IMG/VR virus record: IMGVR_UViG_3300045988_138996 | Location: 96,001-160,000 of that record | Reading direction: 5' to 3' (one strand) | Length of the DNA: 64,000 nucleotides | Source of the DNA: a virus | Made by a program: the position numbers and the translations under genes | The notes under the pieces: model-generated | The model's database searches: none | Told to the model about the DNA's origin: nothing | What the model saw: the letters and a program-made list of their open reading frames with translations, nothing else | Shown: piece by piece, positions 9,668-12,600 of the stretch | Numbering within the stretch: position 1 is the first letter of the stretch | How the letters are laid out: each line of letters opens with the position of its first letter

Positions 9668-12600
9668 ATGGCTTACGATAGTTTTATTATAAATTCGGCA
9701 TATAAACAAAGATCGTTTACGATGGCTGGATTTGATACGCTTTCTTCGTTAAATACGATGTTAAGCAACGTTCGTCTCGAAAGACGAAAGCATACCGAAT
9801 TACTTTTAAACACTACGACAACTATGCCAGTTGCCCTTAACGGTATGGCTAATAAAGAATATGTATTAGACGACAAAGCATATATTTTTGATATCGAAAC
9901 ATTGCCATCTATTAAAGTAGGCAATGAACAAATACCTGATATTATGTGGCAGTATACGGCTCGCCGTGAAGGTGAAACATATAATATGTTCTCTGGTATC
10001 GATGAAAAAGCAGAAACGGCTTATCGTAATTTATTTTTAAAACCAGATTTTAAATATGAAGAATTAAGCCGAAGTGAAAAGGTAGTTGCCGATACGTTAG
10101 CTCGTATCGGTAAAAACTACCGTGAAGGTTCCGGTAGTATTCCTGAAGCATTATCTCCATTAGGATATAAAGATTATGCCGACATGAAAAAATATCAAGA
10201 GCTAATCGAAAACGGTATTAATGCATTATCTAAAGAAGGCGATGCTACTCATTTAATAGCTAAAGAAATTGTCGATCATATTCATAAAGATACGACTCTC
10301 GTTACTTACAACGGTAAAGCATTTGACGTTAATATGACATCGCAACAAATAGCTCGTGATACCGGCATCGATAAAAAAGTTCGTGGTCTTGCTATTAATA
10401 AACTAAGTAAGGCTAATCATTATGATCCGTATCGAGAAATTCGTACGGCATATCAATTAAATCCACAATCAATGAAAGAAGCATATCGAGAACATATTCT
10501 TGGTAGCGATATTGCTAAAGAACGATTAATCGGCGAATTTACTGGTTGGTCTAACAAACAAACAAGCTTTGGTTTGGCAGTTGGTCTTGATGTTAATGCT
10601 GCGCATAGTGCTATCGAGGATACTGGCGTATTCGAAAATTTAATGAAAAATGCTGGCTTTAGAGCATTTATGGCTAAAGCTATCGAGATTAATAATTCAC
10701 CAAAGAATAAAGTTCAGTATAAAGTAAGTGCTGGTGCCACAATATTCAATACATCTTCATTGTGGAATCGTGATCGCGGCATTTTAATGTTTCAACAATC
10801 AGAAGATGGCGGTTATGAATTTCCACAATTTTCTGCTCGTGCTAATGATAACGGTGTTTTTACTGCTTATAATAATGCTCCGATTGTAACTAATTCTGCA
10901 TATAATGTAAAATTTGTCGGTCAACTTGATCGTAATGATTCTTCTCTCGGAGCTTTTGCTTATGAGCATGCAAATGAACTAGGCTTAAAAGGTAATGATG
11001 ATATTCATTATATTGCATTAGAAGAAGCAAGCGGACGTGGTCCTGTTCGTTATATTATGGGTTCTAAAAAAGTATTAGAAGATACGTTAACCGACAGCTT
11101 TAGAGTATTAAGCAACACCTCAGCAAATGGTGAAACGACATATAACTTTGAGCAAATTGTATCGGCTGCCAATTCTTTAGGCATCCCGATGGGACGACCT
11201 GACAATACGATGGATAAAGTTATAGCTGCATCAGCTAAACGTCAATCGTCTGCTAATGCTTGGGACAAAATTGAATCTGGAGCTTTTAATCGTGAAGCAT
11301 ATGTAACTGGCCCGTTAATTAAAAACTTTGCAGAAAATGAACGAGGCATGGCCCTTAATATTTTAGGCGATGCATTAGAACTTGGTACCGACGTAGCGAC
11401 TGCAGCTTCAGCTCGTAAAGCTGGAGATACTGGCGGTATTATTACCGACGACTTTATGAAACGTACCGAACAATTGTTCGGTATTGCTAAACAACATTAT
11501 GGTATCGATTCTAATGATCCTAAGAGTAAGATGTTCTCTGTTGCCGGCGTTCAAAAAATTATTGAAAATATTAATAATGAAGATGTATTATCTATGGTTA
11601 ATATGGTACAGACAGAAGCAGCTGCTCTTCCTGGCGTAAAAGATTATCACAAAACTGTAGCTATGAATTTATTAGCCAAAGAATATCATAAAGTATATGA
11701 TGAATTGCATCCAGAATATGGATACCGTGCATCGATATCTGATAAGATGTTAGATGGTATATCTAAAGATATGCATTTATCTGGTGGCGCTTTTTCATTT
11801 GATGTTCGACAAGAAAATGCTGAGAAGTCTATCGGTTCTATTAAGAATACGATGAAAAGATTACTCACACGACCTGGTCGTGAATCTGTTTCTCGCTCTG
11901 ATTATGTTAAAGGTTATTCTGTATTAGTTAAAAATATTTTCGGAGCGAAGAGTAGACAAGCTCAAGGCTTCGAAAATTTAGTCGAACGTCAAGGTTCTGA
12001 TATGACAGATTTTGCAGAATACATTTTTAGAAATGTACAGCAATTGCGAATCGATACATATCGAGACGGCAAGAAACATCATGAGATGTTTAGAACAAGT
12101 TCGACACCAAGCAAAGATGTTTCTTTGTTTAAAGATGACGACGAATTAGTTAATCGTTTACGTGCCAGCGTTATAAAGAATCTAAAAGCACTGTCTTCGA
12201 CGCCAGAAGATTCTGTTAATAGTATATATAACTATTTAATGGGTAATATTACTCGTAAAGATTTCGATATCTTTTCTAATCGTAATAATTATGCTGGTGC
12301 ATTATATGATCAAGTTTCTGATCATATGAAATCATTTGCTAATCAATTAGAATTCTTGGCTCATCAAAATCAACAAGATATTTTAATTAAAGATGGCAGA
12401 CTTATGATGGGCAAGGGGAATACATTCCGTGATATCACAGGAAATATTCCTTTACTAAAAAGATTAGATAGTGTTCCAGTTCTTGCCTTTGGCAATACTA
12501 ATATTGCTATTAATCCGATATTAAATGTTGTTGAGGGCGCTAAACCAAATGAAAAATTTGTGCAAATTGGTATCAAAGGCTTATCTACATATGATCATTT

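Follow-up and report, generated by a model that had tools for sequence, protein, structure and literature searches.

A predicted DEDDh exonuclease domain at the N-terminus of a putative tail-borne virion RNA polymerase in a jumbo phage related to Bacillus phage 0305phi8-36

In Thermus phage P23-45, the N-terminal portion of the tape measure protein, gp96, is a working virion RNA polymerase (RNAP) of the two-barrel type (PMC10770324). In AR9-type Bacillus jumbo phages, an HD hydrolase domain is fused to the virion RNAPs (PMC7598289). The protein gp66 of phage phi14:2, in which only one barrel is recognizable by sequence, transcribes single-stranded DNA (ssDNA) and denatured DNA efficiently and native double-stranded DNA hardly at all (bioRxiv 10.1101/2020.03.07.982082). 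On the nuclease side, MrfB (YprB) of Bacillus subtilis was shown experimentally to be a Mg2+-dependent 3'-5' DNA exonuclease (PMC11194089). Here we describe a giant open reading frame (ORF) of 2569 amino acids (aa) in a 64,000-nucleotide stretch of IMG/VR virus record IMGVR_UViG_3300045988_138996 (positions 96,001 to 160,000; this whole stretch is called the window below). From N- to C-terminus, its product is laid out as a predicted DEDDh exonuclease domain, approximately 1700 unassigned residues, a beta'-like RNAP barrel, a transmembrane-like segment and a conserved C-terminal block (Table 1). We consider it likely that the protein is a DEDDh exonuclease carried on a virion protein of the tape-measure slot, together with a beta'-type RNAP barrel, and that it acts on DNA at entry.

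A preliminary description of the sequence had proposed a DEDDh exonuclease domain, interrupted by insertions, at the N-terminus of a putative virion RNAP. The ORF translation agrees with the motif placement given there in every respect: FDIET, YNGKAFD and AAHSAIEDT occur in this order and contribute D75 and E77, N215 and D220, and H313 and D318, respectively. The histidine of Exo III is the residue that sets the DEDDh group apart from the DEDDy group. The interval that had been assigned to the domain, 9872-10640, corresponds to aa 69-325 and spans all three motifs; the domain itself probably covers approximately aa 60-345. The proposed insertions were found as well, since the inter-motif spacers of 140 and 93 aa exceed those of the compact homologue in Moorella phage MTATph1, which are 120 and 64 aa long. 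A conserved G-x7-G element, G(I/F/L)xxLxxxG, lies directly before Exo II, inside the larger insertion.

Family membership was supported by a profile search of the kind that the preliminary description had suggested. Matches to Pfam RNase_H_2 (PF13482) reached 27.6-28.4 bits, the curated cut-off being 22 (E = 1.5e-6 to 3e-6), and all four N-terminal sequences compared, covering three metagenomic clades, exceeded the gathering score. Independent matches to this family came from orthologues whose N-terminal domains share 97%, 69% and 37% identity with that of the query. YprB/MrfB belongs to PF13482, a DEDDh family akin to the proofreading domain of family B DNA polymerases (PolB). In one orthologue, there were also weak matches to the NCBIfam model for DNA polymerase III epsilon (E = 0.01).

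Conservation of the catalytic residues was followed from close orthologues to other phage lineages. A search with the full-length query returned 52 clusters, all but a few of them 87-100% identical; two divergent orthologues, P0052 and P0053, are 64% and 28% identical to the 2569-aa protein and lie on contigs of approximately 215-236 kb. D75, E77, N215, D220, H313 and D318 are invariant in orthologues of 93%, 89%, 64% and 28% identity. The wider alignment A5 holds six sequences from four lineages that are 15-34% identical, and it adds gp095 of phage WH1, gp034 of phage KLEB27-3 and CDS0027 of MTATph1, whose exonuclease regions are 15-20% identical to that of the query. Ten columns of A5 are invariant, and six of the ten are the catalytic positions just named. 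Invariant catalytic residues in a sequence in which nearly everything else has changed are the signature of selection for catalysis, and we regard this conservation as stronger evidence for an exonuclease than a shuffle test of the motifs. In that test, the relaxed patterns [FILVMYWA]D[ILVMTCF]E[TCSAN], N[GAVILC]xx[FY]D and Hx[AGS]xxD, required in this order with gaps of 30-250 aa, occurred together in 13 of 20,000 shuffles of the 2569-aa protein (a frequency of 6.5e-4), and in the six-frame translation of the whole window the ordered triple is unique to this ORF. Because the patterns were composed after the motifs had been seen, the shuffle figure is supportive only.

Comparison with known structures pointed in the same direction. 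When the A5 profile was searched against the PDB, 17 of the 21 matches were exonucleases of this fold, the best being Cas2-DEDDh (E = 0.021) and MrfB (E = 0.023), followed by the exonuclease regions of the RB69 and archaeal family B polymerases and by TREX2. MrfB shares the motif set and its order, FDxET, (L)VTYNGKAFD and HxAxxD, and its 'LVTYNGKAFD' is identical to Exo II of the query. The two proteins differ in context: MrfB acts together with a helicase in bacterial DNA repair, whereas the query domain forms the N-terminus of a 2569-aa protein from a phage tail module. They also differ in build: relative to MrfB, the query domain has insertions of approximately 95 and 50 aa and is detectable only around Exo II.

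Several observations weigh against assignment of an exonuclease domain. The match to PF13482 takes in only a part of the profile, positions 37-99 of 165, near Exo II, and the exonuclease matches of A5 in the PDB are all sub-threshold (E = 0.02-2). The segments for A5, like those for the barrel profile A4 described below, were picked around the motifs, which inflates the apparent specificity somewhat. When the N-terminal profile was run exhaustively with HMMER against 1.84 billion cluster representatives, only the protein's own clade and three fragments were recovered, and an AlphaFold2 prediction of residues 1-341 from a four-sequence alignment reached a confidence (pLDDT) of 45, which made the model unusable. 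Because the exhaustive search gave no relatives beyond the orthologues, exonuclease membership rests on motif-centred similarity. With the full-length protein, phmmer and profile searches of the PDB gave no match, nor did a search of the PHROGs or tblastn against 50,697 phage records. A word-indexed homologue search started from the N-terminal domain or the six-lineage profile returned only a 274-aa fragment; started from the 400-aa N-terminal domain (9668-10867) or the profile, it missed even the identical full-length protein, so this type of search may systematically overlook giant proteins when it is queried with a single domain. Taken with these points, the PF13482 matches above cut-off, the invariant catalytic residues and the sub-threshold profile matches to DEDDh and PolB-type exonucleases in the PDB sustain the domain that the preliminary description had proposed, and they support residues ~60-345 as a real, conserved DEDDh 3'-5' exonuclease domain. 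We predict that this domain is catalytically competent and Mg2+-dependent.

Ahead of the exonuclease domain, the basic sequence RRKHT (R39-R40-K41-H42-T43; 9782-9796) sits in a conserved N-terminal leader, aa 26-57. Neither RRKHT nor any of the ~30 residues around it varies, even in the orthologue of only 28% identity. The leader might be a site of processing, make contact with nucleic acid or act as a signal for assembly.

The second part of the protein with a recognizable signature lies some 1700 residues downstream. R-x-P and DxDxD together make up five of the eight residues that are invariant in all two-barrel RNAPs (PMC2919709). In the 2569-aa protein these residues are R2081, P2083, D2119, D2121 and D2123, and all five are invariant among the aligned sequences, including P0053 ('ARYPLDY...LDYDGDKL'), across clades that are only 22-30% identical within the barrel segment. 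A profile of 73 columns and five sequences around R2081-x-P2083 ... D2119-H-D-G-D2123 (A4) was compared with the PDB and retrieved 39 sequences at E <= 10, 38 of which are largest subunits of RNAPs, aligned over approximately 55 residues on the R-x-P ... NADFDGD barrel. Plant Pol V (E = 2.2e-4), RPB1 of African swine fever virus (E = 3e-4) and the AR9 beta' subunit (E = 1.3e-3) were the best matches, and the non-virion RNAP of phiKZ (E = 4.4e-3), Pol I, archaeal Rpo1N and Pol II were also retrieved. When A4 was extended upstream toward the first half of the beta' barrel, the PDB matches were no better. In hhalign, the barrel segment formed the top alignment between the metagenomic family profile and a profile of WH1 and KLEB27-3 (E = 0.002), and against WH1 alone the exonuclease-plus-downstream region was aligned (query 180-423 with WH1 239-468, E = 0.017). 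Both alignments indicate that the metagenomic and the Bacillus-phage architectures are collinear.

Three results leave the polymerase incomplete. A candidate for the basic pair of a beta-like second barrel, of the form K-x6/7-[KR] at residues 1481-1488, yielded a profile that retrieved no RNAP beta subunit from the PDB. No significant match was obtained when the family alignment was compared by hhalign with the single sequence of phi14:2 gp66. The AlphaFold2 model of residues 1840-2330, built from a 4-5-sequence alignment, was unusable (pLDDT 48), and a Foldseek search with it gave noise. By eye only, 'SAKMDMSGRF' in WH1 and KLEB27-3 resembles the beta' motif 'KRVDYSGRS'. Because gp66 is likewise recognizable through one barrel only, the undetected second barrel is weak evidence against a polymerase. 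Of the 'putative virion RNAP' in the preliminary description, then, the beta'-type barrel stood and a beta-like second barrel was not detected. Since the chain that bears the exonuclease domain also carries a beta'-type catalytic barrel, the 2569-aa protein is most likely a tail-borne virion RNAP, like P23-45 gp96.

We compared this architecture with the described virion RNAPs. By description, P23-45 gp96 resembles the 2569-aa protein in being a giant protein of the tape-measure class with a DxDxD two-barrel RNAP, and a second, separate RNAP exists in both lineages, the non-virion enzyme gp64 in P23-45 and the YonO-like orf99 in 0305phi8-36. The order of the modules differs: the RNAP of gp96 is N-terminal (residues 327-1124), whereas in the 2569-aa protein the exonuclease is N-terminal and the barrel lies at ~2064-2128. 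The tails differ too, being long and non-contractile in P23-45 and contractile in the jumbo phages of the 0305phi8-36-like lineage. The phi14:2 protein gp66 (PDB 6VR4) and the N4-type virion RNAPs share with the 2569-aa protein that they are giant virion-delivered proteins in which the polymerase is recognizable through one barrel only. The R-x-P-x5-S ... D-x-D-x-D-K-x-Y pattern of the 2569-aa protein resembles 'YRIPNQGQSS...SDFDIDKMYV' in gp66, the hhalign result given above notwithstanding. Unlike the 2569-aa protein, gp66 is without the DEDDh motif set; it is packaged in the virion of a crAss-like phage (order Crassvirales), whereas the 2569-aa protein occupies the tape-measure slot of a myovirus. 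The AR9-type enzymes are alike in that an RNAP is covalently linked to a predicted nucleic-acid hydrolase, but they are multisubunit RNAPs of the phiKZ type that do not belong to the tail module and carry an HD domain in place of a DEDDh one.

The same combination of an N-terminal exonuclease, a DxDGD barrel and a C-terminal membrane segment was found in the cultured Bacillus phages vB_BceM_WH1, Edson and vB_BauM_KLEB27-3, whose proteins are labelled only 'structural protein' or 'hypothetical' in public records. The barrel signature reads 'NRYPTINKQ...KADHDGDN' at 1957-2001 of WH1 gp095, which also has a weak match to Pfam RNA_pol_Rpb1_2 (E = 0.09), and 'NRYPTINQS...KADYDGDF' at 1892-1938 of KLEB27-3 gp034. 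MTATph1 CDS0027, with its exonuclease domain at aa 869-1060, matches Pfam RNase_T (E = 1e-6 to 5e-5). Judged from these sequences, the fusion of exonuclease and barrel is a family trait, of which the exonuclease is the more widespread part. That exonuclease motifs are kept where the polymerase signature is absent suggests that the job of the exonuclease does not depend on the polymerase. The slot gene of MTATph1 (L022:8934-16290) seems to be interrupted, a 1309-aa ORF being followed by a transposase gene, three short ORFs and the hub gene.

For 0305phi8-36 itself, the evidence was less clear. Its protein gp146 resembles the 2569-aa protein in slot, in length, in a conserved extreme C-terminus and in collinear Exo I/II/III-like motifs, but these motifs lie in the middle of the protein (~1223-1690), a DxDxD motif is absent and overall similarity is not detectable. 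Among 265 ORFs, gp146 was the only match to the family hidden Markov model outside the training set that fell under the inclusion threshold (E = 0.004), with Exo I and Exo II collinear. Comparison of the family alignment with the single gp146 sequence by hhalign gave no significant match. Because a Pfam match is lacking, the case for an exonuclease in gp146 is weak.

The preliminary description had also called the protein tail-associated, and synteny bears this out. The ORF is preceded by homologues of 0305phi8-36 gp144 (tail chaperonin) and gp145 and followed by a homologue of the gp147 baseplate hub, so that it is the second gene after the chaperones and not the first; the same gene order occurs in 0305phi8-36, WH1, KLEB27-3, MTATph1 and the distant metagenomic clade L013. 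Its slot is thus that of 0305phi8-36 gp146 (2537 aa), WH1 gp095 (2515 aa) and KLEB27-3 gp034 (2434 aa). The record of gp146 identifies it as a virion protein by mass spectrometry, and the WH1 and KLEB27-3 equivalents are annotated as virion or structural proteins. We infer from these positional equivalents that the 2569-aa protein, a fast-evolving giant, is a virion protein. The protein gp146 owes the name tape measure chiefly to its length, which suits the very long tail, and among relatives only its last ~60 residues are conserved (PMC2147016). Local BLASTP found no match to the 2569-aa ORF itself in the tail module of this lineage. The phage is uncultured and of ~230 kb; by homology of the flanking genes, it is a jumbo myovirus related to Bacillus phage 0305phi8-36. 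A crAss-like phage, which the three consecutive giant ORFs had suggested, was rejected, the flanking genes being homologous to tail genes of 0305phi8-36-type myoviruses.

How such a protein might act can be outlined as follows. It would lie in or along the tail lumen and be expelled into the host at infection. The tail tip would hold its C-terminus, hydrophobic segment and conserved end alike, and the exonuclease at the N-terminus would be nearest to the head and the leading DNA end. Tape-measure-type proteins of other phages are oriented with the N-terminus toward the head, near the DNA end. The exonuclease would then enter the cell with the DNA and trim DNA 3' ends at the entry site. In the most attractive role, resection of the incoming genome end would expose a single-stranded template for a single-subunit RNAP of a kind that prefers ssDNA; alternatively, the exonuclease might prepare, protect or process terminally repeated genome ends. 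A preference for DNA is suggested because MrfB, the PolB exonuclease and Cas2-DEDDh are the nearest characterized relatives. For P23-45, transcription coupled to DNA entry at the pore has been proposed (PMC10770324). The DNA substrate, the tail topology and the resection role of the 2569-aa protein are predictions. A more sweeping version, which we regard as rather improbable, would make the DEDDh exonuclease an ancient, near-universal module of the ejected slot protein across 0305phi8-36-like jumbo phages, among them the cultured phages of Bacillus and Moorella, and would join it with the DxDGD barrel in one entry-pore machine, in which resection of the 3' strand is followed by transcription of the exposed strand. 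If this were true, it would constitute a previously unknown, 'resection-coupled' start of phage gene expression.

The main rival to an enzyme acting on DNA is an exonuclease directed at RNA, of the RNase T, oligoribonuclease or ISG20 kind, which might degrade host transcripts, nanoRNA primers or linear oligonucleotides that serve as second messengers in defence, or trim the 3' ends of the transcripts of the fused polymerase. The preliminary description had put forward degradation of host nucleic acids, proofreading or action against signalling molecules as possible roles. Many members of the DEDDh superfamily are RNases, the MTATph1 homologue matches RNase_T, and the exonuclease shares its chain with a putative RNAP; couplings of polymerases to DEDDh nucleases are known, for example in coronavirus nsp14. 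We nevertheless consider this reading unlikely. The best family of the query, PF13482, and its nearest PDB matches are DNA exonucleases, and in cyclic signals a free 3' end is missing. In two-barrel RNAPs, transcript cleavage is carried out by the polymerase active site itself. Furthermore, gp146 and MTATph1 CDS0027 keep the exonuclease motifs without DxDGD, from which it follows that transcript proofreading is probably not the job of the nuclease.

It is also possible, but in our judgement improbable, that the protein does no more than measure the tail or serve as a scaffold for ejection, with an exonuclease module attached, and that DHDGD represents a relic barrel, a metal site with a different role or a likeness to the RNAP signature that has no polymerase function. 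The undetected beta-like barrel, the lack of hhalign similarity to gp66 and the unusable structure models would all fit such a protein, as would the situation in 0305phi8-36, which has the separate YonO-like RNAP orf99 and a gp146 without DxDxD. What argues against it is the behaviour of the barrel segment: A4 retrieves RNAP catalytic barrels almost exclusively, residue for residue on R-x-P ... NADFDGD, and the barrel residues stay invariant across clades that have diverged strongly within this same segment.

Less credence still can be given to the idea that the exonuclease fold has been kept only as a structural module or one that binds nucleic-acid ends, for example by holding the leading DNA end in the tail. 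The orientation usual for tape-measure-type proteins would place the domain near that end, and the large insertions could have remodelled the active site; yet none of the four metal-ligand carboxylates varies across lineages, nor does the histidine that acts as general base or the asparagine of Exo II, so we regard this as very unlikely. A proofreading DNA polymerase analogous to archaeal PolD, assembled from the exonuclease and a two-barrel polymerase, is hardly credible. Two-barrel cores can be DNA polymerases, PolD being an example (PMC10770324), and the exonuclease is of the PolB-proofreading type, but the gene belongs to a tail morphogenesis module in which structural proteins are its counterparts, the exonuclease and the barrel lie ~1700 residues apart, and the best profile matches are to RNAPs and not to PolD. 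Finally, chance co-occurrence of three motifs in a protein without an exonuclease domain, to which the frequency of short motifs in 2569 residues and the failure of structure prediction to show the fold might lend some colour, is effectively refuted by PF13482 matches above the curated threshold in every clade, catalytic residues invariant across lineages, collinear motifs in four other phage lineages and a triple that is rare among shuffles.

Both components are known, the DEDDh exonuclease as well as the virion RNAP joined to a tail protein, and their combination, whose function is predicted here from sequence, appears to be new and moderately to highly interesting. In the searchable literature, whose coverage is incomplete, we found neither a virion RNAP nor a tape measure protein described as carrying an exonuclease, and no DxDGD barrel described in a tape-measure-slot protein of the 0305phi8-36 type. 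The words exonuclease and nuclease are absent from the paper on gp96 (PMC10770324), and in a large comparison of jumbo phages the YonO-like enzyme is the only RNAP listed for 0305phi8-36 (PMC7824862). In jumbo phages with very long contractile tails, the proteins in this slot have been regarded as rulers without other features. A conserved nuclease and an RNAP catalytic barrel, in a combination conserved across deep phage lineages, make the slot protein a candidate enzyme-delivery device and bear on how long-tailed jumbo phages begin infection. The tail-tape-fused virion RNAP of P23-45 would thereby be extended to a different, widespread lineage, found in human-associated metagenomes and Bacillus phages, and a second enzymatic activity would be added to this class of proteins. 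A function could be assigned to proteins now labelled 'hypothetical', 'structural' or 'tape measure', and the cultured phages WH1, Edson and KLEB27-3, which have the same architecture, are ready experimental models.

Table 1. Features of the 2569-aa ORF and its neighbours in the window, and exonuclease motifs of the related slot proteins
Feature	Position	Strand	Basis or remark
Tail chaperonin homologue (0305phi8-36 gp144/gp143)	2632..3435	+	local BLASTP, E = 5.6e-11 and 9e-9
2067-aa giant ORF, homologue of gp145 and WH1 gp096	3447..9650	+	local BLASTP, E = 3e-46 to 5e-67
Shine-Dalgarno sequence AAGAGG	9658..9663	+	4 nucleotides ahead of ATG 9668
Giant ORF, 2569 aa	9668..17377	+	program translation
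Predicted DEDDh (DnaQ-like) 3'-5' exonuclease domain, ~aa 60-345, YprB/MrfB-PolB-exo-like, with helical insertions	9845..10702	+	PF13482, cross-lineage alignment A5, PDB profile matches
Exo I FDIET, aa 74-78 (D75/E77)	9887..9901	+	invariant in orthologue and cross-lineage alignments
Insertion of ~95 aa (aa ~110-205) between Exo I sheet region and Exo II	9995..10282	+	mostly helical in low-confidence model; shorter in MTATph1
Exo II YNGKAFD, aa 214-220 (N215/D220)	10307..10327	+	near-identical to MrfB 'LVTYNGKAFD'
Exo III AAHSAIEDT, aa 311-319 (H313-x4-D318)	10598..10624	+	invariant in cross-lineage alignment
Candidate beta-like basic pair K1481 ... D1487-K1488, 'TKLFAESDKLT', unconfirmed	14078..14137	+	invariant in alignment A2; aligns with WH1 'RKFLTDANHRIT'
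Beta'-like double-psi beta-barrel segment, aa 2064-2128, RNAP catalytic signature	15857..16051	+	profile A4 against PDB, hhalign
R2081-Q-P2083, R-x-P of two-barrel RNAPs	15908..15916	+	invariant in alignments
DHDGD (D2119, D2121, D2123), metal-binding DxDxD motif	16022..16036	+	invariant in alignments
Hydrophobic transmembrane-like segment, aa 2455-2476	17030..17095	+	similar segments near C-termini of WH1 gp095 and KLEB27-3 gp034
Conserved C-terminal block, aa 2473-2569	17084..17374	+	orthologue comparison, L013 17249-17539
3176-aa giant ORF, gp147 baseplate hub/lysin homologue	17403..26933	+	PHROG, tblastn, local BLASTP
Baseplate J-like protein homologue	29967-30758		local BLASTP
WH1 gp095	L023:7868-15412		Exo I FDIEN 109-113; Exo II GQNINTYD ~274-281; Exo III THMALQD ~359-365; DxDGD present
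KLEB27-3 gp034	L024:8091-15392		Exo I YDTEI; Exo II GYNVHNFD; Exo III AHFGLSD; DxDGD present
Edson protein (94% identical to WH1)			Exo I, II and III as WH1; DxDGD present
MTATph1 CDS0027 (1309 aa)			Exo I LDLETT 869; Exo II GQNVVGFD 989; Exo III AHEALTD 1053; DxDGD absent
0305phi8-36 gp146	L018:9842-17452		Exo I YLDIETTGL 1223; Exo II AGQNVADAD ~1440; Exo III HLARAD 1685; DxDGD absent

The C-terminal block of the 2569-aa protein is close to identical in divergent orthologues. Between orthologues that are 28% identical overall, the last ~97 aa have an amino-acid identity of 0.76 and an identity at third codon positions of 0.61. The diverged third positions point to purifying selection behind this conservation, and recent recombination or exchange as its cause was ruled out by the synonymous divergence. 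In WH1 and KLEB27-3, the C-terminal block is equally conserved yet different. The block is probably a determinant of hub or tip binding or of assembly.

The 2569-aa ORF is the middle one of three consecutive giant ORFs on the plus strand. An nr entry identical to its product, 'MAG TPA: hypothetical protein [Caudoviricetes sp.]', comes from contigs of ~230 kb. The 2067-aa ORF upstream is far better conserved than the 2569-aa ORF, with E values down to 5e-67 against WH1 gp096, and its product has an N-terminal transmembrane-like segment at aa 20-39, as has its homologue gp145 at aa 33-51. Because this ORF follows directly after the chaperonin genes, it may be the true tape measure. Downstream, residues 1798-2711 of the 3176-aa ORF match PHROG 20474 (E = 8e-146), and in tblastn the same region matches the hub/lysin proteins of 0305phi8-36 (gp147), WH1, Edson, KLEB27-3 and MTATph1.

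Throughout the window (1-64000), the gene-like ORFs of at least 100 aa are all on the plus strand, GC skew is positive and GC content ranges from 25 to 37%; no tRNAs were found in it. Almost none of its ~30 proteins match Pfam or the PHROGs. Most of the related contigs belong to IMG/VR, as viral genomes whose metagenome samples carry the numbers 33000070xx-33000087xx and 70000000xx-70000007xx. A 516-aa ORF situated with the distal tail genes (49661-51211) has a weak match to BspA-type leucine-rich repeats (LRR_5, E = 2e-4, below the cut-off) and may encode a receptor-binding or host-adhesion protein.

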